Source of the DNA: Spironucleus salmonicida
Lineage: Eukaryota
DNA: 64,000 bases
Assembly (NCBI RefSeq): GCF_000497125.1
Contig: NC_090602.1
Location: 1,240,001-1,304,000 of the forward strand
Direction: 5' to 3'
Positions 18,197 through 43,821 of the stretch are shown here, in pieces. Within the stretch, counting starts at the first letter, position 1; each line of letters starts with the position of its first letter. The notes below the pieces were generated by a model that saw only the letters and a list, made by a program, of their open reading frames with translations, ran no database searches and was not told the origin of the DNA. The position numbers were made by a program, and so were the translations under genes.

Positions 18197-19189
18197 ATGG
18201 ATTTTGATTCTCATCCCTGGCTGAAACTAATTTAACTTAATGATCAGTAACTTTTAAAGAGAGGTTTTCCTTAACATGCTTTTATGAAATTTAACAATCT
18301 AGACTCACTATAGATAGCAATTCTTTATGCTCCATAATCTGTTGCAATTTTGTATCCACTATTTCTATACCAAACTTAAATAACATATGATCCTTTATAG
18401 TTTGCTTATATTCATAAAAAATATGATCTGTACCATATTTTCTATGCATCCTTTAAAAAACTAAAAGATAATAAAACAGTTCTTATGTAAGCTGTTTTGG
18501 ATAAGGATAACCAATCAGTTATGGTACTATTATAATATGAAATATATGTTGTTAATTAATCTTAAGAAACTGCTCTTATTCTAGCTTTAAAGTATCGTAA
18601 TTTGGATATTATTTAGTTTTTATAAATTGAATAAGGCTTAGGTGCATGGACTCCCGAATTAGATTATTAGTTTAAACTTATTTTATAATCATCTAGGCAT
18701 TAGACACAACCATACTAAATTTAATTATAACCTTAACGATAAACAACGGATATTATCGCTAATTATTAATAATTTTAGCTGAGTAAAAACCCTAGTCAAG
18801 TATCATATATAAATCAAGAGTATACTCATCCCCCTTAAAATAAAACTATAAATACAAGTCCTATTTAATAGTCATAATAAGATAACCAAAAAGTAAAACA
18901 CGTTCAAATTAATATTAGCAAGAGTTAAGTGAAAGACTTAATTTACGAGAAGAAGGAAACTGAACAATCTGATAGCATTGAAAGCATTGACGAACTAAGT
19001 ATTGTTGATTAGTTACATAAGGAGAATAGAGCTTTAAGAAAAGAAAACTCCAAATTAAAAAAAAGAATATACTAGTTGGAAAACGAATCAAAAAGGTAAG
19101 TAGATATATCAGAAATTGCAAATAAAGAACCAGAAATTCCTATTTGTTTGTCGAAATCTGGAATGAACAGTTCTAAGAAACTATAGTGA
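18197..19189 (+). CDS. Ankyrin-repeat plus coiled-coil protein, 330 aa
   Basis: KTVLMQAV and ETALILAL ankyrin motifs, then a Q-rich linker and a coiled coil. Confidence 0.7.
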
Positions 19190-19249
19190 ATGAATATTTA
19201 AAAACAACCTAAGAATAATTAATTAAGGACTATTAAAATTATTTAAAAT

Positions 19250-19331
19250 CGTCACCTATGGGATTTGAACCCATGCGTACATAATACAATTGATTTCGAG
19301 TCAATCGCCTTAACCTCTCGGCCAAAGTGAC
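19250..19331 (-). tRNA. tRNA-Ser(CGA)
   Basis: The reverse complement GTCACTTTGGCCGAGAGGTTAAGGCGATTGACTCGAAATCAATTGTATTATGTACGCATGGGTTCAAATCCCATAGGTGACG folds as a cloverleaf with anticodon CGA, a long variable arm and discriminator G. Confidence 0.95.
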
Positions 19332-19612
19332 TGAGTAATATTCAATTTATATTATAAGATAGATATTATACCAAAATATATCCAACAGAAATAACGGTGG
19401 TACGAATATTTAATATTGTAATAAAACTAAAATATATACGTTATCCATATTTAATAAGTATTTATGCACTATTCTGTTAAAAGTTCGTACAACAATTGTA
19501 TATTATATAATAATGAAAAGTTTAATAAAAGTAGTATTACATAACCAAGTGAATATAATTTATTCACCTTAAGTAACTAAAAAGCATTAAAACTAAAGAT
19601 GACTGGAAACTT

Positions 19613-22600
19613 TCACTTGAACAGCACACTCTTACCAATTTATCCGTTTTCGTAAAATTTAATAGCAACTATGCCATCTCCCATTTCAATTCCCCACTAA
19701 AGCCCATCGATCTCCTTAAATTTCTTATTTTTGCCAAGACCTAGATACTATAAGTTGATAGTAACCTAGCCCATATCAACTACCTCAAAAACTGCACTTT
19801 TATGCAATATCTTATACGAACTCGACATCTAAACCAAAAAATTAACTTCTTCCTGAATTTTATCCTAAATCACACTGGGAAGTTTCTTTAATTATTTCAA
19901 TTACAATATCAAATGTGCCTACTTATATAATGAAACTGGTTATAATTCATCAATACCTCTATACAATATATCAATAATTTCCTATTCGCTGCACAACTTT
20001 TGCATCACAAACGCGATTTTTATTTAGTTTTAAATAGAAAATCCTACCAAGTCCTGCATAATCAGTCCCTAAAAGTCAATCTCTCGGTCCTCTTTATCTA
20101 AGAACATCACCTAAACAAGATCTTGAATTTGCGGTTAAAACCCACCAAATAGCACAACTCCACAGTCAAAATCATCATCAAAATACCTTTAGATTGCCGT
20201 TTTCATTGCATGTTTTTCCTGTCTCAAAATGTTGTATTTTGCGTCATCAAACAATTGAATTTTGTACAATTTGAAGAAATCGACAAAGAGCTGCGCGTTG
20301 TTTTAAATTGTTTCATTTGAATTGATATTATTGGAAACAATGAATGCTTCAAGCGCAGTTTCAGGCCGGAATTCGTAGCTTACAGCAAGAAAAGGACTGA
20401 AAAACTACAAAAAACTGAGCTAGTTTAAATTGGCTTAAAATAGCAATTCAGCATATTCGAAAAGTTGGTTTATCGGTTAAGATTGTGGAATTAGTTAAAA
20501 TATCGCTTGTGGGATGTATTTTTCACATAAATCTGGTTATAATGATAATATTAGTGGAAGGGAAAGTTGCGTAAGCGATATATCAGTTGTTAACTGAGGC
20601 TAATCCTATAAAATCTTAAAAATGAAGATCTAAGTTTAAACGGAGAGGTTTTAGTAGTTTTTCTTACCTTTGTAAAATTTGATTTCTGTAAGCTAGTTTT
20701 CCGGTGGCTGGTTTGGTTCTGTCTTTTGACTTTCATCGTCGTCATCGCTCCAACCTTCTACACTTTGTTGTTATTACTCTTCTTCGTCCGATTTCCATAC
20801 ACTATCCGCCTCACTGGAACTATCCCAACCTGAAGATTTTACTGATTTGGTTAAATATTCAGAATCTCCCTAAAACATTTCTAAATTGTCGTCTTGTTAT
20901 GTATCTTTTAAATTATACTAAATGACAAGTTTCACAATATCCAATAAATTAGATTACGATTCTTATATAGTTAATAAAGCTAAAACATCAATTTTTCGTC
21001 CTTGCTTCGATAGTTTTTCAATTTCAAGTGTTACCTGTATCTATGAGACTTCCCCATCACATATCAAATTTTCTGGATGAACTAACAAAATTTTAGAAAG
21101 TTTAATTACATCTTTACTATAAATTAACTACAGCGAATCAATAGCTGACTCAGACAAGGCAGAATTTTGAGAATGATACATAGTTGATTTTATGAATTCT
21201 GGACTTAAAAGAGAACCAAATTATGTAAGAACTATATCTGGATTATAATTTGAAGAAGATAAGTGATTCTAAAGCTCTGAAGCAGAAATTTAAGCTAGTA
21301 GAAAGTTCTGATAAAGTTCGTTCTCAATATAATTATTAGATGCATACATAATAAGATTTTATAATATAATTTCTTATTTTAATGTAATAACAGTAGAAAT
21401 TGGAATTTTTTCTAGAACGGATAAAATATACGCTAATTACAAGAAAATAAGTTACTTCTTTGTATTACAGAATTCACAGAGGAAATGGAATTATAGTTTA
21501 GATGGGATAAATATTTTAGGCTTATCTTCTTAATTAAATTAAAATTATAATTTAAAAGAACTTTCAATAATACTTTTAGATTGCGCAAGCGAAAACTTCG
21601 GTATATAAAACTCAAATTATTAATTAATTTCTGATGAAAATGAATCTAAAGATTATGATATATTAAAAATACTATTACAAAATTTATAGTTTTCTAGTAT
21701 CTACTAATTAGTTTAATATTTAATGAAATTATTAAAAAGTATATATAAATTGTCATTTGATATTATTTCATCATAAGAACAAAAAATAAACTAATTCTCG
21801 TTAACATGTATTTTATTTTAACTACAAAGAAATTTGTATAATTATATATCAGTTTTACAAATGGAAAGTGATATTTCAAGTTTAAGATGATTTTAAATTG
21901 GCAATTAATAAAGAATCTCTATTAAATGTTCTTTATTTTCTATAATATTATAAATATCTAATAAAACTGTTTCAAATGAAATATCATCATAATATAGTTC
22001 ATACAATGGAAGCTAATACTCCAAATATTATAAATAAAGTTATTCTCTTGTATATTTTTCCTAAACAATCAAAATCTAAAATAACTACTACTATGTAATA
22101 AATTTCAATAAGTTTAGTATATATTTACTTTCTTTTGGTAATATATTAACATCGTTAAAAATGATGCCGAAAAACGATGAAATAATATTAAATTCTTATT
22201 AAAAGAAATGTATGAAATCTAATTTTTATAATTTTATACTTAATTCTAACAAACTTTTAATATATATTTTTGGAAAATCTACTAATTAAACAACTATTTT
22301 AAATTATTTCAGTTAATTCTATTCGATTAAAGAAATTGCCAATTCATTTAATTTGTCCTTTGAATTAATAAGACTATACGAAAATGGTATTTTACTTTCA
22401 AGAAATATTTTATGAATTTATGTACCTTGTTATATATTATCTAGCAAATTATATAGTTCCATAGATTTAGCTGACCAGTGTAATGGTGCATTTTAATAAA
22501 TATAAAAACATATATCTTTATAATTATCAAGTGACTCGCTTTATTTGAGTATATGCAATAAAATTTCGTCTAAATATAAATCTTATTTATTATTACTTAA

Positions 22601-25549
22601 TATCTAGTCAATAAAAGGTTCCCAATTAACTTATTGTAAAATTGTAAGTATATAATTTTTAGATATTTTATCAACCTACAGGTATTCACATATCAATGGT
22701 ACTAATTACTCATTTAGTGGAATTAGTAAATAGTCATCAAATTTTATGAATTATTTTTACAAAATTAAATATCTCAAATACATAATAAATTGATCTACTT
22801 TATCATAATAATATTAATCTTTTGAGTGCTATATTTCTTCAAGCAATACTATAAGTGAATACTAATATGAAATTGAGGTTTTTTATAAACATTTAGGAGA
22901 TAGTAAAGATTCAATTAACAATAATAATATATCAATTATTGTTTTATCTTATGATTTCTCTTTTGGTAATTCGAAATTATATAATGCAACTAGTTGATTA
23001 AAATATTATTAAGTAAGATTTACTTTTTTAGTAAACACAAAATTTTCAAGACAACACCATGAATCATGTAAACTTTTCTATTATCCTAATAAATTATAAA
23101 TTTGAATAATCATATTAAGAGATAATTCATTGAACAAATTATTCTGCGTATACAACAACATAAAATAGTTAAGTTGTTATTAAAGAGAAGAAACTGCTAT
23201 TGCAAGAAAATTACCAGTACTACAATAAGAAGATACTTAAAAACCAAAGATTTCTGAATCTAATTGTACATTAGGATAAATAGCTGATTAACTAAATTAT
23301 GTAAGCAGCTACTATAAATTCAATATATTAAATTAATCATATTTTTAATAATATTATTAAAAAGTTAAAAACTATTATTCATTTGATACTATTTAATTAA
23401 CAAATTCTTCTAAAGAATATCTATTTTGTGACTTAAAAAATAATGATAATAACTAAATCTAAACTAAAAACTCATCTAAAATGAGTAGATATTATGTAAT
23501 CGTTTATTTAAACTAATTTTAGATTAAGAAATTTTCTTTCTCAATGCAATTAATAATCAACTAAATAATTTAAACAATTTATTAAGATTTTTAAATATAA
23601 ATATCAAAATTTCCTATTTATCTCAATCCTTAAAATATGACAATTACTCCATCAAAATAATTAGCTTATAGGATTAATAATATACCATTTTAATTTAAAA
23701 ATAATTCGCTTGATTGTTTAAAAACTTCTGAAACTAAAAAGCAAATCTCAGGACTTTACTAAATGACGGCATTTGGCTCAATTTCATTATAAATTATTTT
23801 CTCTACCTTAATGTATTTTTTTAACACTAAATCATTGAATTTTTATTTATATTTACTAAAATTCTATAATTCTAAACTAAATATAATCTCATTAATTGGC
23901 GATATTTAATCAATAGTAATAACTTTCATATTATCATCATATAAAAAACTTACTGTAATTTAATTTAAAAAGAATAAATAGTATTCTATTGATTCCCTTG
24001 TAAAGTTAGCACTAACATCATAAACTAAATAATATGAATATTATAGCTCAGGAAATATATAGCTACTCATTTAAAATGGATTATATTAAAAATCTTCGTC
24101 TTTATTCCTGGGCTAAATCTAAATCTTAGATTACACATAATTAGTCAAAATCTGTAAATCTAGTCTAAATATCTCTTCTTAGTTTTATTAAACAATAAAA
24201 ACATTTTTATCAATGAATAAATGAAGTGGTTCGTATTAAATAGATGAATCTTATAATAAACTATTAGAAAACGAGTTTAATAAGTCTTGCCGTTTATTTA
24301 ATAACTTTTTAGATGAGTAAAAAGAATAACTTAATTGTAAATCTAAACAAATTCTATTCTAATTTACTTACTCATTAAATTCATATGTTAATGATTTCTC
24401 ACTATTAACGTTAAAATATGGTATTACCAAATTTTAGCCTACTAAGTAAGTCTTATATAAGGTGTTAACTTTAAAATCTTATACTTTTAAAATCTAAGTA
24501 TCTCCAGATACTAAAAATTAATTATCTTTTTCATTAAACTAGTATAATTAACTACATTGTAAATTTAAAATAACTTATTTTTTAAATATGTTAGTAATTA
24601 ATTAGTATTTTTTATATAATATAGAACAGTTTAACTTGTTAATACTAGCTTATTATAATGTATAAGAATTTATATCGCTTTTCATTGTTTTAATATGAAT
24701 GCAGCAGTCATTTTAATATTCATAATTAAATTACTTAAGTTATTTACTACATTATAAAACAACAACTTCACAAAATTATAATGAAGGCCTAATCTCTATT
24801 ACCATATGCTAACAAATATTTTCTAACCAAAAACTTAAATAAGCAATAACTCTATAACCTTAACCAATGTTGCTTAACAACTAACTATCTTTTTATGTTA
24901 TATTAAAAAAATTAAAATTAAATAGATTTCCTTAATCAAAATTACATAAAAGTTATCTTCTTAGTTAAACACCAGTATTACTTTCGAATGTTTACCCTGG
25001 ATACCCTGATAATATATAGAGTACACCTGAAGAACTAGATGCTATACAACTAAAAAGAGAATTCTAGGTGGTGAAACAAATTGAATGCACTTTAGATTAT
25101 AAACCATTGAAAATTAATTTTGTTGGACAATATAAAAGAGGTTTGTCTTCTAAATAAATAGTTAGGAATGAATCAGATATCACAATAATATATCCATTTT
25201 ATTCAGCCATGCTAACTTCTCCTGAACCAACTGGTCCTATATAGTTAAACTTATGAAATAAATATTCGTTATAAACTTAATAATTATTATCCAATAATTG
25301 TAGATTCTACTTATTATTCTATTATAATTAACATGTTAGTAAATCAGATAACTATTTAGTTTATTGTTAATGATCTTAGAATATAAATTTTGTCTTACTA
25401 AAAATTGGAGTATTAAGCTGTTTAATATATATTCTATAAAGATCCTCTATTTAATCTTAATCCTAAATTATAGGTAAATTAAGGTTAGAATCAGTAATTT
25501 GATAAGCTAAATCAGATAGATAAGTTACCTACTAATTTGTAGTTATCAT
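19613..25549 (-). CDS. Large hypothetical protein, 1978 aa; possibly NBAS/Sec39-like (beta-propeller-like N-terminus plus helical body)
   Basis: Frame read open across 19613-20820 and 23760-25549 and spot-checked between. Contains SICFTTQNSLFSCIASSSGVLYIL and an acidic WKSDEEE..EGWSDDDE patch. The family call is weak. Confidence 0.6.
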
Positions 25550-25616
25550 TTTAATTTATTGATTATATTCTATTGTAGAATATAATAAATTATATATATA
25601 ATTTTATAAAATATAA

Positions 25617-28600
25617 ATGATAAATTCTGCGTTTAATGATATGAATATAGAATCATAAAATTCTGCAGTTGAATAAACAAAATCAGATGATTATACTATA
25701 AATTCATTGTTATTAAAGAGTTTGACATAATCATAAAAAGAAAAGCTTAAAATTTCGTAATATTTTATTAAAATTTACTAATAGATAAATAATATTGAAC
25801 TAATTAAATAAGTTACTATTTAAATATTAGGAAATATTGAACTCTTAGGATCATAACTCCCAAATGCTGTTTAAATAGTTAAATAATATTTCTAGATTAC
25901 ACCAAGCATTAGACCACAAATGATTGATATTTTATCATAAAAAATAGACAGTAAAGCCACAATGCTGGTTTTACATATTATTAAATAATTAGCTGCTATA
26001 TAAGGATCTAATACTACAAAGAGTATTATTTATAGTTAAAAAATAGATAAGATTAAAAATAATAATTCTGATATTTAATAATATGTAACTAAAAATTGGG
26101 ATATATTAAAAAATTTCTATATTAAAGAGTAGTAATTTCGTTTTAAAGAAAAAATACAATTTTCTCCAGATATTTAGCCAGAAATTATGAGCATTTCACT
26201 TAGTTAAGGACTACCTTAAATGATTGAAATATCAAATGAAATGAAATCTCAAGCATATAATATGGCTATTTAGCAATTAAATCCATTCCTAGACTACTAA
26301 TTCTAGTAATAAGAAGATAGTAACCCTAAGGATTCATTAAAAATTTTAATTAATACATCTATTTCTTTATTAGAGAAAGAAGTTAAACCTATCTATATTA
26401 ATTTTTTAAATATAGTTATACTATACTATAAATAAGAAATAACAGAAAATTAACTTAATCATATTGTACATTTTCTTCTATAGTAATATGATTAATCTAA
26501 TATTATTAAGTCACTGGTAGACTGCTTACTTGTCTAATTTTTCGATGACGTATTTTATAAATTAGTATAGAATAAATTATTTGAATAATATTTTATGCGA
26601 ATAATTTAAATTCTATTTGTTGTTTACTATTAATTTGATATTCAAATTTCTTAATAGTTTGCATCGAACTATAAAAAATTCATAAGACCGATAATTGATG
26701 ATTTAATGTATTTAAATGATAGACCATTTATGATATTTAATAAAATAATGTAAACGAGCTACTATTTTTGGGAAGAATTATGTTTACAAATTTTTTAACA
26801 AACAAATTCATATTAGAAATTTAAGTTTGAATCCAGTAATAACATCATCATTTCTGATTTTTTAAATTCTCTCGTGTCAACTGATAAGAAGGTAGTAATA
26901 TTAGAATAATAACATGATGCATTACACAATCAATCATATTTGTAGATACAAAATATTAATATTGTTAAAGAGTAGTATACAGTAATACTGTAGGCAATAT
27001 AGACATAGGAAAAAGCAGTTTAAAAACTTTTAGAAAATTAGCTTTATACTTCATAATTATAAATACTAGAGTTTATATTCTATGTTATCTAGATAAATTC
27101 TCCTTTAATTAACACTTTACTGAGTATCATTATGAATTCTTCAATTCTATGCAAAATGTATGATAATATTGTGTTATTCTAGGCTAAATAAAGAGATTAT
27201 AATTCTATTTAAAAAGTACTATAGTTTTATTTTTAAAACTAATCTAATAATATTGACTAAACTATCAATCTAAATAAGTATATAGAACTTATTGAGAGAT
27301 ATTATCTTTATGGTTGGCTTATGGAGATTGAATGCCTATTCCTGTGTAAAGATATAAATAAGGATATATAAATTCATCTAATTAATTCAATATTATCTTA
27401 TATTAGTTAATAATATGATCTTAATGTATTAGAAGTAGTATTTACAAATAAAATTTAATCTTGTCAAATTCCATATATTGCTATACTCGGCCTATACATT
27501 GTGCATTATTATATATATTAAAATAAGATTAATATCAAAGATATATAAATTTATGATGTGCAAACAAAGTATCAGACAAAGCCTATCGTTACTGATTAAT
27601 ATTTTAAAATAGTGTAAATTAAAAAATTATCAAATTTTGTTAAAATAACTGCAATACTTCTAAACTCATAAACATTTACACACTAACAAGCTGAATATTA
27701 TCAATTTATACCTTATATTTTAGCGTAGATTTCATAAATTGAAGTAGAAAACGGAAACTCATTTGAAGAGCCAAAATATATAAGATCTACATCAACATAA
27801 AAATCTAAATAATTCTCAATTTACAAGTCCAAACGACCTAACTAATCATTTGTCTCACATTTTGTATAAGAATACAATTAACTTCATGAACTTAAAGATA
27901 AATTAAACTTTTTAAAAACGCTTTTAAATGAAATTTCTTAATCCCCAGATATATTCAAAATTGACTCGGAATTTTGCTAATTTTCGTTAAGGCTACTTAA
28001 GATAGAGACAAATTCTACTATTATTGAAATGTTTTTATAAATTCTTAATTTCATATTTTAAGGAAATTATTCAAATAAATAGGTATTAATAAAATCGACA
28101 ATTGATGATACTATAATTTTACTTAATAGTAGAAAGAAAAATTTAATATTTTATGCAAACCAAGTTTGTAATTCAATTATATCCTAAGAAACATAATTAT
28201 TCTAGTAAGACTTTGTTATTAAAAATAATTATTTTGCATCAGCAATAATTGCAGCTATTAAAAATACTAATTTATAGAATATAATGTTTGGATACATTGG
28301 ATAGTATGTTATTCCAAATATTGAAAGCTAAGATGCGTTTTTTTATAATGAATTTATCAAAAAAATTTATAAATTTGCGAAAGATAGCGTAAACTATAGT
28401 TAAATTGTTAATGAAATTGAGCGAATTTTCCCTTAAAGTAAAATTACCAGCAGACCTGCAACTCCAATTAAGAAAATATTAAGATCATAAATTCCAGTAT
28501 AAGTAAAATCTAGACCAGTAACTCCAGTTAAGAAAGAATTAAGAGAAAGCCAACTATTGTAAAAAACTATTGATTCATCATAAATCTAACCTGAAACTTT

Positions 28601-30095
28601 ATCATGTTCCTAATTATTTAACTAAAGACAAACAAATAATGACATATACAGTAAAAAATAACCTTCGGAACTTTGGGAGGTTTTATTTTAAAATAATTTA
28701 GCAACATAATAGACGAACTAGGAATTAATAGCTATAACTAATTAAGCAACATAAAACTTTACTCAGTTTTAACACGTACTAGATATCATAATCTTACTTA
28801 TTTAAAATAATATTACCTCAATAATAATAAAACCATTTATATAACTCTGTAAATCTATTAAAATCTCTAACTTAAATTATTCTACTTATTTGTAGTAAAT
28901 TATTTTGTAGACTCTTTTAATGGTAAACGAAAGCGAAAATGAAAGCTTAGATGAATTTATACTAAGCTATTCGAATTTTGCTGACTTATAATTTCTCATT
29001 TTCTCATTTTCATATTTTCATGAACAAAAAACTATAGAAATTTTGTTTGATATCGGAGTAAAAATAATGAAAAATGATGTCTAAATAGCTTAAGTTTTAG
29101 CATTAACAATGTTAGAAAAATAGTGTAATAAAAAATTAACTAGAGAAAATATCATATAGTAATGCAAAATAGTTTTAAATTTAGATAGATAAGATTCTTA
29201 CGACAATATATTTATAGAAAAAAGCAAGGACATTTTTAAGTTATTCAATTATTAATCTAGCTCTGAAGTAGATATGTTTAAACTATTTCCTGTACTTAAT
29301 GAGATTGATTTGTCTGTTTCAACAATTTTCAAAGATTTGAATGATTAATTGAACTTAGAATTTAATAGTTCTTAAATATAGTGCACATAAAATATTAGTG
29401 AGAATATAGATTAAAATGTAGAATGTACATAAATCTAAGTATTATAATCACTTTGCTCAGATTTATTAATAGGAAATGAATTCATTGAAAGTATTTAATA
29501 GGTTAGCTAATAGTTGACACCAATTAAATAGAATTATGATATTATTAGTTAATTAGTTTTGAAAATTTTATTAAAAGTTGTGAAATACTATAATATTTTA
29601 GAAGAAAAATATATTATTTAAATTCTTAATAATGTTGATATATACGTAGATATTAGAGACGTATAAATGGCATTTGAAATCTTAAAATTCAGTCAAAACG
29701 ATTTCCCTATTATAAATCAAATTCTAACAAAATAAATATCTAATTTAGGTCTGACTCAGCTTATCCAACCTATTATTTAATTTTCTATTTCCATATATAG
29801 TTAAGATGAAATTCAGGATATTTAATACTTAAAATAACTACTATTACTTACAAGTATGCCACCTAGAATTTTAGCTATGAAAACTAATGATTATTCAGAA
29901 ATTAAATCAATATTCCACCTAATTATTGATCAAATACCATAACTTGAAGACATTGACTTTTAAGATAAATAATATAAAATTGCAATTCATCCTCTTTCCA
30001 TTTTAAAATTTATAGTTCAAGAGTTTAAGTTTGTGTATTATTCTAACGAAGACCAGTTTGAGGATTTCTCTGATATAACAATTTGGTTAAAATGA
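25617..30095 (+). CDS. Large helical (HEAT/TOG-like) protein with a central basic Ser/Pro linker, 1492 aa
   Basis: ATG 25617 and TGA 30093-30095 are in frame; central SRPATPIKK/SRPVTPVKK repeat with an SQIP motif. Middle was only spot-checked. Confidence 0.6.
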
Positions 30096-31164: not shown

Positions 31165-32040
31165 TCACTTCTTCTTCGTATTCTTAGTCTCAAGCTCCTG
31201 CAGTACCCTCGTTTTCACTTTATCCAGCTCATTTTGAGCTGCAATTTTGATCGCCTCAGCCATCTTGTCCACGTCAATCTCGCTCTCCTTGTCTGTATTT
31301 TAGGTCTCCTCCATCTTAACTTCTGTAATAATCTCCTTAATCTGCTCGTCAGCTTTCTCGTCTGCTGTTGGAGGTGCTGGTTTGAACCACTGTACTGCCT
31401 AGCTCAAAGGCTGCAAAGTTACGTTGTACTCATACTTCGCCTTCTCTAATTTAGTAGTTAAATCAGGCTTTTAAGCACCGCTTTTGCTTCCTGGCCGGCT
31501 GCCACCTTTCGTTGCTTTGGGTTCCTCAGCTCCGCCCAAAACGACGCCAAGTTGTCTTATGCTTTAAATAGAAACTATCTCGTTGATTTGTCTAGATTTT
31601 ATACTCAAAATCGGTTGTGGAGAGAATAAAAAACGCCAGAAAGAGCCGGTTTGGCAGTAGAATTCGTCCAAAAATTCAGCGCAAATCAGAGACTGAGAAT
31701 ACTCCAAAGGTGCAGTATAGAAGGTCGGAATTTCAAGTGAAAACTGTAGGAGACGGTTCCTGGCAGTAGCATACAGATCTGCCTGCGAGGACGAAATATT
31801 CTCGGAGTGTAGGTCAACCAGGGCAGTAAAAAGCGCACAGGATGCAAAATCTGATGAAAGGCGCGATGTGGCGAACACCAAAAAATTGTTTAGTAGTTCG
31901 CAAATTGCTTCGTGCTGAGGAGAAGGTTTTTATGCATTAAAAAAGAGTTTTGCAAACTAATCCGCGGTTTCTGGGTTATTAACTAGCTCTAGATATTCTT
32001 CTGGTTAGATATAAAGGTTTTAGGGGACTGAAGTATTCAT
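31165..32040 (-). CDS. Flagellar central-pair protein, C1a-32/CFAP119-like, 291 aa
   Basis: RLLQFSLEIPTFYTAPLEYSQSLICAEFLDEFYCQTGSFWRFLF resembles the C1a-32 core; C-terminal coiled coil. Confidence 0.6.
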
Positions 32041-32201: not shown

Positions 32202-35200
32202 ATGACCACTCGACCTGTATTAGCCATTGACATTGGCTATGTTAATCTAGTGTTAAGTTCGTTAAGCAAAGATAATAAATAAAAGATATGCGGTATTTAT
32301 GGTGATGAAAACTATAAATAACCAAATTTTGATTTTGATGAGGAAAATAAACCATTTATTTGTTAACGCAATAAAGGATATCCAATATTCTACAAATCAG
32401 AATTTTTTAATTCAGACGATATAAAATATCCAACTTTGCCAGAAATTTAGCTAGCTTACTTATCAATTCCTATATCATCAATCTTCTCATGTATTTTTAA
32501 ATAAGCTAAATCTCTATTTCCATATGCTAAGGATATTATTATTTTAGTACCAAATTCATGCAAACAATGGCATCAAGATTTTCTTAGTAAAATCATATAA
32601 TAAATTTTTTAGATTACTCCAATATTTAGTCCATCTTGTGTTTCTGGAGCCTTAAATTTTGTTAAGTAAGATTCAGAGATTGTTACAGAAAAGCTAAATG
32701 GTAAACAAACATTTAACGCATTGTATATAAATTTTGGAGCATATTATGGTGATTGCGTCGCATTTAGTGTAAATTAATAAAGAGAGGTTTAATTTCTCTA
32801 AACAAAATCATCCTATAATTATGTAATAGATAATATAGGATAACTTACATATGAAGATATTTTATTAAGATTTTAAAATAATAAAAAAACAGAAAAAATT
32901 AGGAAACAAATTTCAAAATTTAAAGGCCATATTATTGATAATATTAATACACCAAATATAGAGCAAATTGAACTTTTAGGATTGAATCAAGTTTTATCTG
33001 AAGATTTACTGATAACTAATTTTAATTCCGAGGATGATGAAAATTTAATGTATGATGATAACATTATTTATGTGGATGAAATTTATTTAAAATCAAGGTA
33101 AAAAATTATAGATTCTAAAGTTTAAGCACTTCTTAATTAAGTAATTAAATAATTTTTAGAAAATGATATTAGTTTTGATATTATTATAGGGTCGGGTGGA
33201 TATTTAGTTAACAACACCGGGGTTATAAATAAATTTGTTAACTTTGAGCTAGGGAAATCGCTAATATAAATGAAACCATTTATTTCATTTTGTGCAACTG
33301 GTGGATCTTTATTTAATCTGTTTACGCAAATAAAAATTCAAGAAAAAACTATTGATATTTACTACTGTGACATCTAATCTAACTCTATTGAACATTAAAA
33401 TATTATTCAAAGAGGATAAGAATTTTAATTTTAGTATAACGGTACTATTGTTATGGAAAGCTTAAACTAAGATATTAAAATAGCAGTAGTAGAATCTTTT
33501 AACAATAAATCTGAAATTTATTTTGTTTAAATTTAATATTGTCAACTAAATTCAAAAAGTTAATTTGATTTTAACTACTATATGTATACATATTCTCCAG
33601 ACATATATTTTACTTATTCTTAAGATAAATAATAACAAAAATATTGCAATATTATTAAATATAAGAAACATGAATTATAGTATGATTTTACCCCACAATA
33701 ATAGTAAATACTATAGACATTAAAATCAAAGGAAAAATATATTTGCTTTTTAATTTTCTCAATATAATAACTAGACAATATTTATGTATCTCATTAGTGT
33801 TTATAAATATAACAATCACCATAAAATATTTATCATGTTATGTTAGAATTATCATAATAATTATCATCATTTGATACTATCCATATGGTACTAAAATAAT
33901 TAGATTCTAACAAAATTGAATCAATTTTATAAAAATTTATCTAATACGATCTTTAATAATATGAAATTTCAGAGTAAATTATATAGAATTTTTTATCTAA
34001 ACATATTGATAAGCTTATAACCTAAACTAATGGGTTCTCTTTATGTATTAGTCCAACTATTCAAATAATTAATGAAAAATTAACTTTAATAAGTAATAAC
34101 AGTACTTACATACCTGTAAATATTAAGTATCCATATTAATTTAATGAAATTAATATTATTATGCAATCTTAAACTCAAATACTTGTTGCTTCTGACGAAT
34201 CTTCTCCATTCGTGTATGTGTTCTAGCTTTCTAGTAACTATAAGGCTCCACTTGCATCTATTTTAATAAAATAAGTTTTACTCGATGAAAATGTGCTGCC
34301 ATATTTAATTAATTAATAATTTCTTTTATATCATCTAAATGATTCTTCTCAATTAATATTAAATATGACTTAAACTATATCAAATTTTAATTAAATTTAG
34401 TAATATCTCAACAAAATAGCTATACTAATTCCATTTTTGGGAAATTCTTTAATATATTACCATGCAAAATAAAAATGTTATGCTGAAATTATATCAGATG
34501 GATGTAATAAGTACTCATTAGTCTCTTACTCAGTGATAAATCTTAAAAATTAATTTTCTGAAAACGATCCAGGAATTTCTTCTCGTAATCCAAACATATA
34601 TAATCTTTCTAGTAAACTACTTAACTTTTTAGCTTCAAATTCATTGATTTATTTACTAAATAAGGATATCAGACTTAGCGTCTCATTAGACCAGGAGTTA
34701 ATTAATTCGCATATTGTTCCAGATACAACTTCTGATTATATATTTAATGGATCCTCTAAAATATTTGTCATTACATAAATCATTCTTCCATTATAATTTG
34801 TGAAAATAAATTTCAATACATCACCAAAAGAAGGTATTAAAGTAAATTATGCATAGTTATTTAACTGTAATTTAAAACCTAGAATGTTGTGTTGTGAATG
34901 TGATAATGAACCTCATAATGGTGTTTTCATACCTACGATAATGCCATCTGGATAGATTGAGTTGTTTTCAATTGGTAGAGATTGCGCAATAAAAGATTTT
35001 TCTAATGAATATATAGCACGCCCGTTACTGTAATTATTTCCATAATACATGGAAGAAATTGATGATTAAATTGTATTTCCTATCATTTCTCTAGGTCAAG
35101 TGATGTTTGGTCTCCAGTTGCAGAATTGCAAAAAATGGATATAATAAGCTCTTAGTTATAACTTAGTAACTTCATAAACAACTCCATGTTGTCCAACACA

Positions 35201-35561
35201 TAAAGAGGCAGCGTAATAAATTCCTGGAGATGCTTTTTATTAAAAATGCCCTATATCGTCATGTCATCTACATTTTTGTGATTACTGCTTTAACTGGCAT
35301 GAGAGAATAAATCCATATGAACGAAAGTGTACTGCTGGTATGATATAGTGTCCAAATTGTAAGATAATAGGTGAAAGAGATGATAAATGTTTAGTAACAA
35401 CCTGTATTTGTTAGGTTCATTTTTGCACTTTTCCAGACTGTGGGAAATGGTATAAAAAGTATAAAGATTGTGAAAATCATGTTTTTACACATAAAAGAGG
35501 AATTGGAATCTATGAAAGAGGTAATTCATCTGATACTAAAATAAATGCTGCCCATCTCTGA
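32202..35561 (+). CDS. Fusion of a degenerate Hsp70-like (actin-fold) domain with a C-terminal IBR-RING2 (RBR E3 ligase) module, 1119 aa
   Basis: N-terminal VLAIDIG, IIILVP, LYINFGAYYGD, DIIIGSGG, FCATGG; C-terminal CCPTH..CPISSCHLHFCDYCFNWH and CPNC..ERDDKC...TCICQVHFC, all in one frame. Confidence 0.75.
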
Positions 35562-35604
35562 AATAATTTATATTCAATATAATATTTAAGAAATATAATT
35601 TAAA

Positions 35605-37794
35605 ATGGTAAACTACTAGTACGTCTTTAATGAAGCTAGTATGAATAATTATTATCCTTTAAATCAGTTGATTAACTATACTTTTACATTAGATGATTAT
35701 CACTAAGTTTATGAGTGTTTTAATAACTGTACATCTACAGATATAAAATTTATTATACTATCATTCCTTAATTCAAAGCTTGCTGGTAAAATAGCCTAAT
35801 AATTTGCCAAAACTATAACTAAGCTTAATATTAATTATGAGTTAAATGTACCACTCACTTAAGCATTAGGAAAGTTTATTTTTCGATCAAACTAACTTGG
35901 TGAGGTATAAATTGATATAGATAATTAAAATGTTATTTTAAGTGCATTATCATATAAATAAAATATAGATCTTTCCTTTTCTTCTCTCTGCTTCCCATTA
36001 GACAATATTTTTAAGGTGTAAGTTCTAAAAATAATTATCTCATAAGTTATGCTTACTCGAGAACAGCTTAACGAGTTAATTCCAGAAATTATAAATTTTT
36101 TACCTTAAACTAATTCTATTTTGGATGAAATTTTTCGAAAGAAAATGAATATTGTATTTTTAATGAAATTAGCACTAGCACTTCCAACTTATTAGCGTTT
36201 TAAGCAACTTTAGAATATGTTTGACTATTAATTTCTGATTTCTAAACCTGAAAAAGTTGCAAAATTATTTGAAGTGTTGAAAAATGATGTAATATGTTAA
36301 TTTACTTAGGATTTAGATACTGAAAATATTATAGATTTTTATCAATTTTTTGGGCAAATTTTCCATATTTTTAATCAAATTAAACTTACATGGTTTCAAT
36401 AAATTGCAGCATAATTTTTATTATAGACAGATTAGGTTCTATACCTCTCAGAACAGTCTTAATTCTTCTTTTAAGGTCTTTTTAAATATATACTAAATCA
36501 AGAAATTTTAGACTTAATGATATAACGTATTGATTAATATCCATTAGAAATTTAAATTTAAGTGTTTTGTAATTTATTCAGTTATGATCTTATTAACCAA
36601 AATGCATTAAATTGCTGTCTTCAAATTTTAACTGGAAACTTCCCGATCGAAACTACGAATTTCGCATGCTATTAACTTTGCTAAATGTCATAATCTAAAA
36701 ATCAAATCGATGCAAATATTATATTAAATGCATTTGTTATCTATCAAAGAATTCTAAGACAAAACTTTACTTAGATTTTTACTTTAAATGTATTTGAATA
36801 TTACGATTTTACGTAAACTACTATCTCAGGAGCTTTAAACTAACTATCAAAAGTCCTTTTAGGGTGCAAATAATGTGATTTTTAGCAAGCTATTTAAACT
36901 GAGATTTTATAAAATATATACTTTACGCCTCATGTAGCTCTGTTCAACTTCATTTCATTTTAGAGTAATATTCTAGATATTTTATCTCTTGATCTTCAAA
37001 ATCAATTACTAATTTATATTGTTTTGCTCACAATTTAAGCTCAGAATGACACAGAAAATTAATACTAAAAACCTGAAATATGTGATTTAGAAGAATACTA
37101 AATTGGATATATACTAAGTTTTCTGGCATCTTTTGAGTTCAACCCTGAGCTTCAAGAATTCGTTCTTTTTTTACTTAACAAATAAGTAAAAAATTAATTT
37201 ATAAGTGATTTATTAATCGAAAGTGTGTATGAGTTAATACCAAATCTAGTATACAACAAGAATGGGGATGTTTTAGTGCAAAATATCTGTATTTTAGTTG
37301 ATTTTTGTAAACGGTAGATAGTTTCTGACGATCTACTACGGGTGATAATGGAGTTGTATAATTTGAAAGATGACGAAATTAGTGTCCTTGAGTAAATTAA
37401 AATACTATTTAATAATGAGGTACTTTAGTATATGACAGAGATTCTTGGTAGCGAGGAGCCGGTGGTGCGGGTGTGCTTCAGCCTACTAGCAGGCTTCATG
37501 AATTTCGGGGTCGATGTTGCAGGGATTCTGAAGGGGTTGGTGTTAGGATTCTTGGAGAACAAGAACTAGGATAGCAGGCGGAACCAGTACGAAATTAGTT
37601 GCGTGCTGAGCTACCTAAAAAATGAGGATATCCTACTGGTTCTAGGCACAGCGCTGGAGGAGCACAAGGGCGCAATAGTAGGGTAGATAGCAGATATGCT
37701 TGAATGTATACTCACAATGACCTATGACAAGTTCGATCGGTAGACCGAGATTAAGCTGCTTCTTGAAAAAGTAAAGGGTATAGTATTATTATGA
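35605..37794 (+). CDS. Hypothetical helical-repeat (possibly karyopherin-like) protein, 729 aa
   Basis: Start and stop are in frame in code 6; amphipathic helical pattern. The last ~118 codons lie in the left arm of the inverted repeat. Confidence 0.6.
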
Positions 37795-37826
37795 TATGAG
37801 TTATATTGTCCTTCTACTTCCTAGCA

Positions 37827-38957
37827 ATGATCAACCATCTACCAGTGGCCATTGCGTTATTCATTCTTTTGAACTATATCGATCAGGTACAGTCCCTATA
37901 ACTTGGCAAGGACTATAGGGTGTATCTTTTTATTTTCATATCCCACGTTCTGCTCTGCGTGTACTACTCCAATCAGTTTAAATTAGCCAGGTACCCGTTC
38001 ATTAAGAAGATCGAGCTTAAAGTACTGGTATCCAGCCTGTTATTGGATCCCCTTTGGCTAGCTGAAATATTTAAACCAAATTTGGAATACTAGTCTATTG
38101 GCGCATTTGGTTTGTTTCTAATTATCAATGGTATGTTGTCATCAGATAATGTGATGTTCAGTATCGGATGTATGATACTACCTTCAGCAAATCCCCTGAT
38201 ATCTGTATTCACTTTGCTCCTGTTTTGGAAGGAGCTAGTACGCGCCCAAAAGATTAAATTAATATTACTATCGGCAATCTCACTGATTATTCACATATTT
38301 TATTTGAAAGATTTTAACCTAAACTATCTTGTAACGACAAAGAGCCAAGAATTCTGGCTGTACTACAAACTGTCCAGTACCAGATTCTAACCATACTACA
38401 GTTTGATCAGTATAACGCTTATTGGGGCTGTCCTTCTCTTGCGTAATAGGCGTATTCCGTAGATGCACAACCTTATTTACAAGCTTACGTTAATCTCCAT
38501 CATTCTCAAATCGATGTCCGTCTATAAATTCGACGCTTGTTTCCTACAGATCATCTTTTATTCTCTCACTTTGATCAATAAAAACCTATTCTTCATTCCA
38601 ATCTACTCTAGCTTTGTGTTTCTGGTCGTCTACCCGAAGATATACAAAAGTTGGAAAATTGGTATTGTAATCGCTGCGTCGTACGTCCTTTTCGTTGGAG
38701 TGTTAACACTTTTGTCAAGTTTTTACAAAAATCACATCTTCCGGTAGCAACGCATCTTAATGTTCTTGTTTTCGTTCCTACCAATCACCATAGTGGTGTT
38801 CTCCTTCTTTGGAGGAAATATAGTTCTGCTGATCCTTCAGGAAAGCTTCGAACTCTTCTACTTATTATTGATTTTCATCACAATATTAGTTATATACCTG
38901 ATTACTAATGGTGAGCAGGAGGAGTCTTTTTGGTAGAGCTCAGTGAGTGATTAGTGA
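37827..38957 (+). CDS. Multi-pass membrane protein, copy 1, 376 aa
   Basis: A code-6 frame joins supplied ORFs 38112 and 38463; many hydrophobic segments; ends TAG-TGA. Confidence 0.75.
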
Positions 38958-39025
38958 TAGTTATATTTCGAATCTTGAAATTCCATGTATTATACCCTAA
39001 CTACTGTAAAACTTAACTTTCCAGA

Positions 39026-39922
39026 ATGGATAGCGAACATTTTGATCTGCTCCGCTAGCAACACGAAGCCCGCTAGCTTTAACTTATGGCTGATATCAAT
39101 TAATTAAAATCTGAACTCGCTCATGAACGATCAGTGTCGGCCTAACTGAATAATTCGCTGATGACGCAGACAAACGCGCATGCTAATGATACATCGCAGC
39201 TATAGGCTTCCTTGGCAGCAGCACAACTTAGAACAGAGCAGCTTACCCAAATTAATACTGATAATAAAGCGGAACTTTACGACCTGCGAAACGAGCGACG
39301 AAACTCGTAGATGTAGCTTGATGCAGCTAGACATGAATTTTTCTCATTATAGCGGCAAAATTAAACGCAGAAAGAAGAATTAATTCGGATGCAATCTCAG
39401 TTTATGGAGAGATAGGGCGCATACGAGTCGAAAATTGAAACCCTTAAGGCCGCAATTAATGGAGTATCTGGGTTGAATAATTTTAGAAATGGCGGTTTCT
39501 CTGCTGCTGTTTCTGCACTTGTTGAATCTGGAAATGACAAAGAATTGTTTCTTGCAAAAATTGCTATGCTTACTAATTAGAATGACGAATTGCTTACGCA
39601 AAATGTGAAAAATGAAACCTAGATTAAGTAACTCAAAGTTAAGATCAAATAATATCAGCATTCTTTTGAAGGTAATAATGTCCCATCGGTGAAAATACTC
39701 ATGGAACAAGTGGAGTAACTTAATGAGGAGAAAGAAGTATTAGAGGACGAAGTGGATACGAAAGCCAAGAGGATGGTTAAAATGAAACATGATATTTAAG
39801 AGCTTATAAGCGAAAATAAGAAATTACGAGCTACTACTGTAGAAATGAAATAAAACTTCCGCAACCTGCAGGATATCCGAGAACAGATTCGGGAAATGAT
39901 TGATGACGAAATGAACGAATGA
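39026..39922 (+). CDS. Coiled-coil protein, copy 1, 298 aa
   Basis: MDSEHFDLLRQQHEARQ...IREMIDDEMNE; continuous heptad-rich frame. Confidence 0.8.
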
Positions 39923-41327
39923 TTAACTAAGCATGTCTACTACTGAGTTTTTCTATACTAATGCTCATTTGATAGAAATGTTATGGAAATAGTCCTAATA
40001 TTTCGGCAACAGGCTAAGATGACAAACTCACTATTTGTTGCAGATACACGAATATCTGGGATTTTCGGGTGATGTATGATTATAGAAGTGTTATTTATGT
40101 CTGTATACCAATTATTTTATAATTTTCACTAAGCTAAGTGAGCTAGCAGACTTAAATTAAAGAGTGTAACATCAATAAGATCGTAAAACATAAAATTTAT
40201 AGGCTTTAATGCACAATATATTATTTGAGTTTAAAATATTGCTATTATACAACTAGATTAGGAACTTTGAGATCGAAATTATTAGTTTGTTATATGAATA
40301 ATTAACCTTAAAGAATGATATTATACATCGATATATTGTATAGATTCACAAATTTTTATATTATTCATCTAATGTCTCTGTAATTATAACACTAATATAT
40401 TTTTAAATTATAATAGTCACTACCGAAAATATTGAGTAATATAGTACTATACACAATAAATATAAATAATAAGAAGATACTTATGGTATCAATTTTCTAC
40501 TATTCATTAAGAAAATACTATACTTTAAACATTATTACCATATTTATAGTCTATCTTAAATTTTACTATTTTAGTATAATAAATAACAATGCATATTTTC
40601 TATTTTTTAACTGTATATTGATTTGTATAATTTATTTACCGTTTATAATCCTTACAATCTATGGTAGCTAGTGATATAGTTTTATAAATCAATCATATGC
40701 TTTATAAAATCAATACCAAATTAATACTCTTATCTGTTGGATTTAAATTATTTGGGATATAACTTAGAATTTGGTAAATACATATTAGTAAAAACTTATA
40801 TTAACCACAGTGCACAAATTTCTGATAATCGTTCAAAAAAATAGAATTATTTTTATTTAATTAAGTGTCAGCGTTAACATTTTGATAAAGTATAATATAG
40901 ATTTGATAAATTTTTATATTTTATACTTATGATAGATAACTATTCATATAAATATTATTAATATATTGAATTCGGATACAAAATTAGACACTAATATCTA
41001 ATTATGCCTTAGATATGTAGTGTATTTCATTATCATCATCATAAAGTTGAGGCATATTATAATATGGTTTGAAACTAGTTTTCACAATGTATATCATATA
41101 AACCTATTAAAAAGATATAGTCTTTTATTATATGAAAAGTAATCAGTTTAAAAGGGTATATTACATATAATCATACATCACCCGAAAATCCCAGATATTC
41201 GTGTATCTGCAACAAATAGTGAGTTTGTCATCTTAGCCTGTTGCCGAAATATTAGGACTATTTCCATAACATTTCTATCAAATGAGCATTAGTATAGAAA
41301 AACTCAGTAGTAGACATGCTTAGTTAA

Positions 41328-42224
41328 TCATTCGTTCATTTCGTCATCAATCATTTCCCGAATCTGTTCTCGGATATCCTGCAGGTTGCGGAAGTTTTAT
41401 TTCATTTCTACAGTAGTAGCTCGTAATTTCTTATTTTCGCTTATAAGCTCTTAAATATCATGTTTCATTTTAACCATCCTCTTGGCTTTCGTATCCACTT
41501 CGTCCTCTAATACTTCTTTCTCCTCATTAAGTTACTCCACTTGTTCCATGAGTATTTTCACCGATGGGACATTATTACCTTCAAAAGAATGCTGATATTA
41601 TTTGATCTTAACTTTGAGTTACTTAATCTAGGTTTCATTTTTCACATTTTGCGTAAGCAATTCGTCATTCTAATTAGTAAGCATAGCAATTTTTGCAAGA
41701 AACAATTCTTTGTCATTTCCAGATTCAACAAGTGCAGAAACAGCAGCAGAGAAACCGCCATTTCTAAAATTATTCAACCCAGATACTCCATTAATTGCGG
41801 CCTTAAGGGTTTCAATTTTCGACTCGTATGCGCCCTATCTCTCCATAAACTGAGATTGCATCCGAATTAATTCTTCTTTCTGCGTTTAATTTTGCCGCTA
41901 TAATGAGAAAAATTCATGTCTAGCTGCATCAAGCTACATCTACGAGTTTCGTCGCTCGTTTCGCAGGTCGTAAAGTTCCGCTTTATTATCAGTATTAATT
42001 TGGGTAAGCTGCTCTGTTCTAAGTTGTGCTGCTGCCAAGGAAGCCTATAGCTGCGATGTATCATTAGCATGCGCGTTTGTCTGCGTCATCAGCGAATTAT
42101 TCAGTTAGGCCGACACTGATCGTTCATGAGCGAGTTCAGATTTTAATTAATTGATATCAGCCATAAGTTAAAGCTAGCGGGCTTCGTGTTGCTAGCGGAG
42201 CAGATCAAAATGTTCGCTATCCAT
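41328..42224 (-). CDS. Coiled-coil protein, copy 2
   Basis: Mirror of 39026-39922. Confidence 0.8.
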
Positions 42225-42292
42225 TCTGGAAAGTTAAGTTTTACAGTAGTTAGGGTATAATACATGGAATTTCAAGATTCGAAATATAACTA

Positions 42293-43423
42293 TCACTAAT
42301 CACTCACTGAGCTCTACCAAAAAGACTCCTCCTGCTCACCATTAGTAATCAGGTATATAACTAATATTGTGATGAAAATCAATAATAAGTAGAAGAGTTC
42401 GAAGCTTTCCTGAAGGATCAGCAGAACTATATTTCCTCCAAAGAAGGAGAACACCACTATGGTGATTGGTAGGAACGAAAACAAGAACATTAAGATGCGT
42501 TGCTACCGGAAGATGTGATTTTTGTAAAAACTTGACAAAAGTGTTAACACTCCAACGAAAAGGACGTACGACGCAGCGATTACAATACCAATTTTCCAAC
42601 TTTTGTATATCTTCGGGTAGACGACCAGAAACACAAAGCTAGAGTAGATTGGAATGAAGAATAGGTTTTTATTGATCAAAGTGAGAGAATAAAAGATGAT
42701 CTGTAGGAAACAAGCGTCGAATTTATAGACGGACATCGATTTGAGAATGATGGAGATTAACGTAAGCTTGTAAATAAGGTTGTGCATCTACGGAATACGC
42801 CTATTACGCAAGAGAAGGACAGCCCCAATAAGCGTTATACTGATCAAACTGTAGTATGGTTAGAATCTGGTACTGGACAGTTTGTAGTACAGCCAGAATT
42901 CTTGGCTCTTTGTCGTTACAAGATAGTTTAGGTTAAAATCTTTCAAATAAAATATGTGAATAATCAGTGAGATTGCCGATAGTAATATTAATTTAATCTT
43001 TTGGGCGCGTACTAGCTCCTTCCAAAACAGGAGCAAAGTGAATACAGATATCAGGGGATTTGCTGAAGGTAGTATCATACATCCGATACTGAACATCACA
43101 TTATCTGATGACAACATACCATTGATAATTAGAAACAAACCAAATGCGCCAATAGACTAGTATTCCAAATTTGGTTTAAATATTTCAGCTAGCCAAAGGG
43201 GATCCAATAACAGGCTGGATACCAGTACTTTAAGCTCGATCTTCTTAATGAACGGGTACCTGGCTAATTTAAACTGATTGGAGTAGTACACGCAGAGCAG
43301 AACGTGGGATATGAAAATAAAAAGATACACCCTATAGTCCTTGCCAAGTTATAGGGACTGTACCTGATCGATATAGTTCAAAAGAATGAATAACGCAATG
43401 GCCACTGGTAGATGGTTGATCAT
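42293..43423 (-). CDS. Multi-pass membrane protein, copy 2
   Basis: Mirror of 37827-38957. Confidence 0.75.
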
Positions 43424-43455
43424 TGCTAGGAAGTAGAAGGACAATATAACTCATA

Positions 43456-43821
43456 TCATAATAATACTATACCCTTTACTTTTTCAAGAAGCAGCTTAAT
43501 CTCGGTCTACCGATCGAACTTGTCATAGGTCATTGTGAGTATACATTCAAGCATATCTGCTATCTACCCTACTATTGCGCCCTTGTGCTCCTCCAGCGCT
43601 GTGCCTAGAACCAGTAGGATATCCTCATTTTTTAGGTAGCTCAGCACGCAACTAATTTCGTACTGGTTCCGCCTGCTATCCTAGTTCTTGTTCTCCAAGA
43701 ATCCTAACACCAACCCCTTCAGAATCCCTGCAACATCGACCCCGAAATTCATGAAGCCTGCTAGTAGGCTGAAGCACACCCGCACCACCGGCTCCTCGCT
43801 ACCAAGAATCTGCTGCCTCAT
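43456..43821 (-). pseudogene. Duplicated 3' fragment of the 35605-37794 gene, with an in-frame ATG just outside the arm (MRQQ-ILGSEEP..., 121 aa)
   Basis: Mirror of 37439-37794; ATG at 43819-43821 is in frame and an in-frame TGA lies upstream at 43837-43839. Confidence 0.55.

Follow-up and report, generated by a model that had tools for sequence, protein, structure and literature searches.

We analyzed one gene of Spironucleus salmonicida, located at 32202..35561 on the plus strand of a 64,000-nucleotide stretch (NCBI RefSeq assembly GCF_000497125.1, contig NC_090602.1, positions 1,240,001 to 1,304,000 of the forward strand) that as a whole is called the window here. Judged by sequence comparison, no known member of an unnamed protist family of RING-between-RING (RBR)-like proteins is more divergent than the 1119-residue product of this gene, which belongs to the family through two domains: one that we call domain X and a C-terminal IBR-Rcat module predicted to be a divergent ubiquitin ligase module of the RBR type. 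The best overall explanation, to which we assign a probability of roughly one half, is that a divergent core of this family stands behind a lineage-specific head, possibly of the ASKHA (actin/Hsp70) type. The predicted core, residues 736-1097, would comprise domain X, a one-zinc remnant in place of RING1, a WPxxPLGQ linker, the IBR (BRcat) finger, and an Rcat with its active-site Cys; the region of ~735 residues ahead of it was found in no other protein searched. A sequence-only reading of the same DNA had proposed an Hsp70-like domain fused to an RBR module, and we regard an Hsp70-RBR fusion as a lead, not a finding. The features discussed below are as follows.

32202..35561 (+): whole open reading frame, 1119 codons plus a TGA stop, TAA/TAG read as Gln
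32202..33356 (+): putative degenerate ASKHA/Hsp70-like region, residues 1-385; ESM Atlas features, no profile or PDB match
32214..32261 (+): phosphate-1-like motif (ASKHA ATPases), residues 5-20; the only N-terminal motif above chance
33357..34406 (+): Gln/Ile-rich region, residues 386-735, without relatives or family
34407..34817 (+): domain X, residues 736-872, in common with the N-terminal part of P0008, P0013, and P0016-P0018 (alignment A3)
34887..35000 (+): RING1-position remnant, residues 896-933, with only C897, C898, C900, H905, and C928
35070..35186 (+): linker with (W/F)PxxP(L/I)GQ, here FPIISLGQ, residues 957-995, preceding the IBR
35187..35330 (+): IBR (BRcat) finger, residues 996-1043, with C997, H1000, C1016, C1021, C1026, C1029, H1033, and C1043
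35349..35492 (+): Rcat (RING2), residues 1050-1097, with C1050, C1053, C1068, C1070, C1075, C1080, H1093, and H1097
35388..35390 (+): TGT codon of Cys1063, the catalytic position of Rcat, Cys in 14/14 aligned sequences

A single reading frame

The stretch 32202..35561 is a real single-exon gene in which TAA and TAG are read as Gln. Under translation table 6, which makes this assignment, it forms one open reading frame of 1119 residues, and under table 11 (the bacterial code) there is no long open reading frame at 32202-35561, with stops throughout the frame. Gln is encoded by 66 TAA and 14 TAG codons (80 in all) versus 18 CAA and 3 CAG. The earlier reading had held that an in-frame TGA splitting the two halves would speak against a fusion; the sole in-frame TGA in 1120 codons is the terminal stop at 35559-35561, and the nearest one upstream lies 17 codons 5' of the ATG. 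The other frames across the same span contain 10 and 53 TGAs on the plus strand and 33, 16, and 8 on the minus strand. G+C content falls from the first to the second to the third codon position in 4/4 segments of the gene, as is typical of coding sequence. Spurious long frames do occur here under table 6, such as one of 569 residues antisense at 32593-34302. Within the 64-kb window, tblastn found no paralogues of the gene. As stated in sections of the Hexamita inflata genome paper (PMC11787283), Hexamitinae use an alternative code and diplomonads are intron poor; the first two columns of its comparison table give a G+C content of 33.3% and 33.5%, and the window averages about one third.

Continuity of the frame is also seen in contigs from four public runs of one study, whose kind is not recorded (none is recorded as RNA) and which may share their sample with the window. 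On the gene, these contigs are 100% identical to the window, without joints, indels, or differing letters. Single contigs cover 32741-33886, 33822-35554, and 33894-35501, and a second assembly thus connects the head to the middle and the tail. Contigs on the gene start at 32209-32214 and stop at 35553-35558, and word depth in the four runs is 3-27 on the gene versus 250-312 on the neighbor at 31165-32040, one contig of which has a loose end of eight Ts at 31150. Some intergenic stretches are uncovered. The contig set looks like a transcriptome, and we do not count it as evidence of transcription.

The ligase-like tail and its family

To place the tail, we searched 1.84 billion representative proteins with phmmer (E <= 0.001), which returned 15 proteins including the query itself. 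Every match to the 14 relatives is confined to residues 942-1105 (E 9e-9 to 9e-4), and 11 of the 14 have a Pfam IBR-type match on their last finger at E <= 0.01, three of them reaching the curated cut-off. A profile built from the query and 13 of the 14 relatives (alignment A1) matched 49 PDB sequences at E <= 1. RBR ligases account for each of the best 39 (E <= 0.0031), namely parkin, ARIH1, ARIH2, RNF216, CUL9, and HOIL-1, with E values from 2e-8, for the Rcat of parkin, to 3e-3. The profile aligns over IBR and RING2 of ARIH2 and RNF216, and it places Cys1063 on parkin C431. These matches and the conserved ligands argue that the tail is an IBR-Rcat pair of the RBR type, and on this homology we assign it as a divergent RBR-like IBR-Rcat ligase module. 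The IBR finger and RING2 proposed by the earlier reading are thus supported by the 14 relatives and the A1 profile, and the C-terminal strings that it quoted are present at residues 1050 (CPNC), 1058 (ERDDKC), 1067 (TCIC), and 1073 (HFC). Other searches with this material gave little: among 5153 candidates of near length, only the query protein itself was found; A1 found no relatives among proteins of 1582-4515 residues; and in viral contigs it gave 237 pattern matches and 0 relatives.

All 17 columns that are invariant in A1 are present in the query. They comprise Gly965, the Gly of the (W/F)PxxP(L/I)GQ linker motif ahead of the fingers; C997, P998, and H1000 (CPxH) and C1016, C1021, C1026, C1029, and H1033 in the IBR; and C1050, P1051, and C1053 (CPxC) with C1063, C1068, C1070, C1075, and H1093 in Rcat. 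The seven IBR ligands from C997 to H1033 are invariant in both A1 and A4, and C1043 follows them. The likeness to RBR ligases, including HHARI (ARIH1), extends to the Cys/His patterns of IBR and Rcat, the C-terminal position of the module, and the conserved linker before the IBR, and the likeness to parkin extends to the Cys at the thioester position and the C-x2-C-x9-C-x4-C spacing. A helical linker between RING1 and BRcat is described for parkin and HHARI in the portions of a 2014 review that bear on it (PMC3940038), and we infer that the WPxxPLGQ-type linker is its equivalent. Among the relatives, Rcat ends in a C-x2-C ... H-x3-4-H site; several of them have a conserved tail, DPPDY(R/K)(R/K)(Y/F) ... 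FY..YP, after Rcat, and a region common to several looks RRM-like by eye.

Several observations weigh against a straightforward RBR assignment. The protein alone, whole or in three pieces, has no Pfam match at E <= 10, and the IBR models PF01485, PF22191, and PF22605 match neither the whole protein nor residues 868-1119 at that threshold. Nor does it match any solved RBR structure in PDB, the tail alone being nearer to a C2H2 finger (TFIIIA, E 0.5, not significant). The RBR identity is therefore transitive, reached through the family. An eight-ligand, cross-brace RING1, which RBR ligases have and which is their usual docking site for the E2, is absent from the query and from its relatives in A1, and no canonical RING1 is present in any of P0002-P0019: the degenerate RING1 noted earlier is visible in the five Cys/His residues listed for 896-933, and at this position the relatives keep one Cys (9/13) and a CxxC, for whose first Cys the query has Gly925. 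At the +2 position from the catalytic Cys, where parkin and HHARI use His (PMC3940038 and PMC11354881), the query has Val1065, as the sequence-only reading had recognized when it described a kept Cys and a missing His. The second Rcat zinc site also differs from that of RBR ligases, with a C2H2-like spacing of C-x4-C-x12-H-x3-H. Finally, the query departs from the 13 relatives at five sites that are invariant among them, Lys to Arg1059, Asn to Leu1064, Gly to Gln1071, Tyr to Thr1076, and Cys to Pro1078 (Cys1080 stands two residues on), and in a tree of 16 modules, from which P0012 and the fragments P0003 and P0019 were left out, its end branch carries 8.29 changes per column versus a median of 1.18. 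The five changes and the long branch suggest that the ligase may be inactive.

Part of this divergence belongs to the family. Among the 13 relatives, the +2 residue is His in six, Arg in five, Leu in one, and Ile in one, so a missing His is common there, and both the degenerate RING1 and the variable +2 residue appear from the alignment to be whole-family traits, not peculiar to this gene. The family (P0002-P0019, at least 18 proteins from Logan and ENA assemblies) includes four members, P0016-P0019, added by a word-index search with A1. Its long members, P0008, P0013, and P0016-P0018, have 811-998 residues (alignment A2). The query module compares to the family with an hhalign E of 8e-13 (A2) and, as a positive control, a profile-alignment z of 32.6; the family motifs WPxxPLGQ and CPxHP read FPIISLGQ and CPTH in the query.

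Domain X provides the second tie. By hhalign, residues 738-872 align to A2 columns 130-274 with an E of 1.5e-3 and a probability of 17%, and BLASTP against P0013 gives an E of 0.015. Profile alignment of residues 700-890 reaches z = 9.9, with 0/200 shuffles attaining the score, compared to z = 0.1 and 2.3 for two other parts of the protein. Domain X has no Pfam match in scans of the long relatives and no PDB match with the A2 profile, whose PDB matches are to Rcat only. The idea that domain X of the relatives is an Hsp70 remnant was rejected (hhalign E 0.6-0.9). Domain X of the long relatives is close to the N terminus, with ~500 residues of coiled-coil-like and other regions between it and the module; in the query it adjoins the module and is preceded by ~735 unique residues. 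The query thus resembles P0002-P0019 in domain X, in the remnant-linker-IBR-Rcat module, and in the invariant columns, and it differs in the position of domain X, in the five changed sites, and in having the longest branch of the tree. The shift of domain X relative to the module, combined with long divergence, points to the gene as a rearranged and very divergent family member.

If the module is active, its chemistry would be expected to follow that of RBR ligases, which transfer ubiquitin in two steps through a Cys thioester, as set out in parts of two papers (PMC11354881 and PMC3940038). By analogy, an E2~ubiquitin conjugate would pass ubiquitin to Cys1063 as a thioester, and Cys1063 would hand it on to a substrate. 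The N-terminal region or the middle of the protein might select that substrate or keep the ligase inactive, as accessory domains do in parkin and HHARI, where they are described as giving autoinhibition and substrate choice (PMC3940038). Since the RING1 position does not hold a RING in this family, the E2 would have to be recruited through another surface or a partner. The same review, in its treatment of parkin, describes a BRcat-Rcat fragment without RING0 or RING1 that is highly active (PMC3940038), so enzymatic activity in a family lacking a true RING1 is not implausible.

The head and the Hsp70 question

The phmmer search (E <= 0.001) gave no relative for residues 1-735, and what can be said of the head comes from comparisons of its first ~400 residues with ASKHA proteins. 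We lean slightly toward the view, based on sequence features, that the first ~385 residues form a degenerate actin/Hsp70-type (ASKHA) fold. A 16-residue phosphate-1 block derived from 15 sequences of the Hsp70 family has its highest score among 505 positions, 20.6, at residues 5-20. Within the allowed range of positions, none of 2000 shuffles reaches this score; 19 other proteins encoded in the window, with 12,374 positions between them, score 17.9 at most. At this same end of the protein, hhalign places residues 5-36 on DnaK 3-34 (E 0.21 in a single comparison, not significant), and hmmsearch --max with a DnaK profile of 80 sequences finds residues 6-30 only (E 0.07, not significant). The ESM Atlas search with residues 1-400 returned 30 matches with scores of 0.95-0.93, and all among the matches listed are Hsp70-named clusters; per the tool, shuffled proteins reach a first match of 0.95 about once in 100. 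The nearest clusters by these features are divergent "Hsp70 family protein" groups from bacteria and fungi, of which some carry PF00012 and others belong to no Pfam family, and the likeness is a feature score only, without alignment or E value. Residues 480-890 gave no usable ESM Atlas match.

Several results weigh against an ASKHA head, and no statistical test of the sequence beyond the first motif supported it. The ESM matches have 135-150 of 256 features in common with the query versus 170 for a typical same-family pair, a measure that is uncalibrated for protein parts. In the comparison for the connect-1, phosphate-2, adenosine, and connect-2 motifs in order and spacing, the five blocks other than phosphate-1 together reach z = 1.25, their observed sum being attained by 215/2000 shuffles. 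The motifs that the earlier reading had matched to Hsp70 and actin are all in the protein, with AIDIG at residue 8, IIILVP at 112, INFGAYYGD at 176, and IIIGSGG at 327; phosphate-1 stood up as above chance, the other five blocks taken together did not, and among ~500 positions for each block, the places named come only 6th to 17th. A windowed statistic over all blocks gives 47.1, a value reached at 49/5084 offsets in real window proteins, and two MreB controls outside the profile score ~150. Gapped local alignment to the DnaK nucleotide-binding-domain profile gives z = 0.17 (56/150 shuffles equal or exceed the real score), and hhalign of the head against Hsp70-diverse, MreB, and joint profiles gives only E 0.2-0.4, in a set-up that returns 3e-13 for MreB against DnaK and 3e-10 for a divergent Hsp70-like protein. 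The head has no match at E <= 10 in Pfam (HSP70, MreB_Mbl, and others), NCBIfam, PADLOC, or PHROGs, and a PDB search with residues 1-400 at that threshold yields four unrelated matches only. An Hsp70-like domain, as first proposed, is thus not established. For the substrate-binding beta domain, residues 375-520 compared to a DnaK 386-510 profile give z = -0.18, with 100/200 shuffles at or above the real score.

Wider searches with the head gave no firm relative. The best E by BLASTP against Escherichia coli DnaK is 0.24; global hhalign and semi-global alignment produced trivial end overlaps only; tblastn against plasmids found no match; 201 genomes of one bacterial phylum gave two matches on short frames (E 0.4-0.9); and JGI metagenomes gave 106 pattern matches and 0 relatives. 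Because the head is found in no other protein searched, conservation cannot argue for its function. If the head is aligned as Hsp70, an alignment that is itself conditional, the Thr-Thr of phosphate-1 reads Tyr-Val and the DxGGGT of phosphate-2 reads NFGAYY. Such replacement of the Thr and Gly residues would imply a pseudo-ATPase, whose phosphate loops would no longer be able to hold ATP. Two functions had been offered for the fusion, a single-chain factor that recognizes and ubiquitinates and an E3 regulated by a pseudo-ATPase; given an actin/Hsp70-type head, dead-looking phosphate loops fit the second better.

How much of the protein is what it seems can be weighed at both ends. The head may not be of the actin/Hsp70 type at all, being some other lineage-specific fold or a region of low order in which residues 5-20 arose by convergence or chance, attached to a fast-evolving family member; this is a serious possibility, if a tentative one. 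It is favored by the lack of any profile, PDB, or profile-profile signal beyond residues 5-36, by the chance-level block test once phosphate-1 is removed, and by ESM feature counts in the range of chance matches or distant relatives. Hsp70 motifs matched by eye are moreover unreliable, as similar ones were "seen" in domain X, and the five long relatives also lack an Hsp70 match in Pfam at E <= 1. What it leaves to be explained is that the phosphate-1 score falls exactly at the N terminus, where ASKHA domains start, at a height not equaled in the shuffles or the other window proteins, and that the ESM score, rarely reached by shuffled proteins, names the same family. At the opposite extreme, a working chaperone-ligase, whose head would bind misfolded clients under ATP regulation while its tail ubiquitinates them, could replace the Hsp70-CHIP or Hsp70-parkin pair. 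Head and ligase module do lie in one open reading frame bridged by single contigs, ESM features and phosphate-1 point to Hsp70, and Cys1063 and all zinc ligands are kept. We nevertheless consider this version very unlikely, as a substrate-binding beta domain is undetected, the ATP-binding Thr and Gly of both phosphate loops would be replaced under an Hsp70 alignment, no Hsp70 profile match of any kind was obtained, and such a head occurs in no other member of the ligase family, leaving no conservation to argue for function. The more general proposal, a covalent fusion of an Hsp70-type (ASKHA) part with a Cys-dependent, RING1-less RBR-like ligase, acting as a single-chain recognize-and-ubiquitinate factor or a pseudo-ATPase-gated E3 and invented in one protist lineage, is itself improbable.

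At the other end, the gene may be expressed as a pseudo-ligase, with an Rcat that no longer transfers ubiquitin and serves as a scaffold or zinc-finger adaptor. The five changes at relative-invariant sites are concentrated near the active Cys and near the second zinc site, the query's end branch is 7 times as long as the median one, His is missing at +2, and the isolated tail leans toward a C2H2 finger. Set against this, the Cys and the full set of zinc ligands have been kept along a very long branch, suggesting that selection maintains both the fold and the Cys; the +2 His is also absent in 7/13 relatives; and the +1 residue of parkin is Met, not Asn. We hold loss of activity to be less likely than not, though a serious alternative given the many changes near the active site. 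It is scarcely credible that the gene is an artefact, whether a chance frame in AT-rich DNA or two genes run together through an error of assembly or reading. Long spurious frames under table 6, like the antisense one above, show that such things arise; a single TGA in 1120 codons versus 8-53 in the other frames, Cys/His columns conserved with 13 relatives, and identical contigs that bridge the parts without joints (possibly from the same sample as the window) speak against it. The reading that we prefer remains an RBR-like family core behind a lineage-specific, possibly ASKHA-type head.

Surroundings of the gene and wider meaning

The window is packed with long table 6 open reading frames, among which clear families include TPR, WD40, AAA ATPase, ankyrin, kinase, V-type ATPase B, and a flagellar C1a-32-like protein. 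Immediately upstream, the neighbor at 31165-32040 (-) is divergently oriented, with 161 bases between the two start codons. Downstream, the listed open reading frame 35380-37794 (+) overlaps the last 182 bases of the gene in another frame; an ATG at 35605, 44 bases past the stop, is the more likely start of that downstream gene. Very long table 6 open reading frames of 20-27% GC and without a Pfam family lie at 13789-17397 (-), 19613-26194 (-), 25617-30095 (+), and 35605-37794 (+), with lengths of 1202, 2193, 1492, and about 729 residues, respectively. Nearby genes with clear families, such as the AAA ATPase at 6905-8686 and the WD40 protein at 5586-6923, have 45-50% GC; across the window, conserved and lineage-specific genes differ strongly in base composition. 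A single tRNA-Ser gene (anticodon CGA) at 19250-19331 (-) lies within a listed 447-residue open reading frame, 18105-19448 (-), just upstream of the one of 2193 residues.

Two repeats occupy the right part of the window. A perfect inverted repeat, 37439-40084 and 41166-43811, has 2646-nucleotide arms of 100% identity and a 1081-nucleotide spacer. Each arm carries a 376-residue open reading frame that looks multi-membrane-spanning and a 298-residue one that looks like a coiled coil, neither with a Pfam match. In run X4, one contig carries a loose end of 255 letters that coincides exactly with the boundary of the arm at 37439. The structure, 37439-43811, arose either by a recent duplication in inverted orientation or through misassembly. 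From 53891 to the window end at 64000 runs a tandem array of a 2250-bp unit in at least 4.5 copies of 99-100% identity, with 47-49% GC within an AT-rich region. Its start falls within the 3' end of the gene for a PP-loop ATPase (52871-54100), and it gave no Rfam match. Each unit holds a 116-residue histone-fold open reading frame (first copy 54114-54464, minus strand; Pfam Histone E 2.7e-13) that looks like H2B.

Known ubiquitin biology offers points of comparison for both halves of the protein. In chaperone-assisted ubiquitination, Hsp70 works with CHIP/STUB1, a U-box ligase, or with parkin, as separate proteins. The idea of a client-recognizing Hsp70-type part coupled to a ligase is common to those systems and to the protein described here; unlike in them, the coupling here would be covalent, the Hsp70 part is putative, and its site for ATP appears to be dead. 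The 2014 review (PMC3940038) lists interactions of parkin with Hsp70 and with CHIP, and the N-terminal partner domains of the query are unlike any of the human RBR domains in the part of that review that covers them. A literature search at the level of titles and abstract openings, with subscription journals thinly covered, found no report of a natural Hsp70-RBR fusion.

The absence of RING1 bears on the family as a whole. According to the review's account of RBR architecture, RING1, BRcat, and Rcat had until then always occurred together, with no isolated BRcat or Rcat known as of 2014 (PMC3940038). The present family, without RING1, appears to be undescribed, although the names of its members could not be checked. 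Should this family work without a true RING1, it would raise the question of how its members recruit an E2, and if the head of the S. salmonicida protein does have an Hsp70/actin-type fold, the protein would provide a natural example of chaperone-coupled ubiquitination within a single chain.

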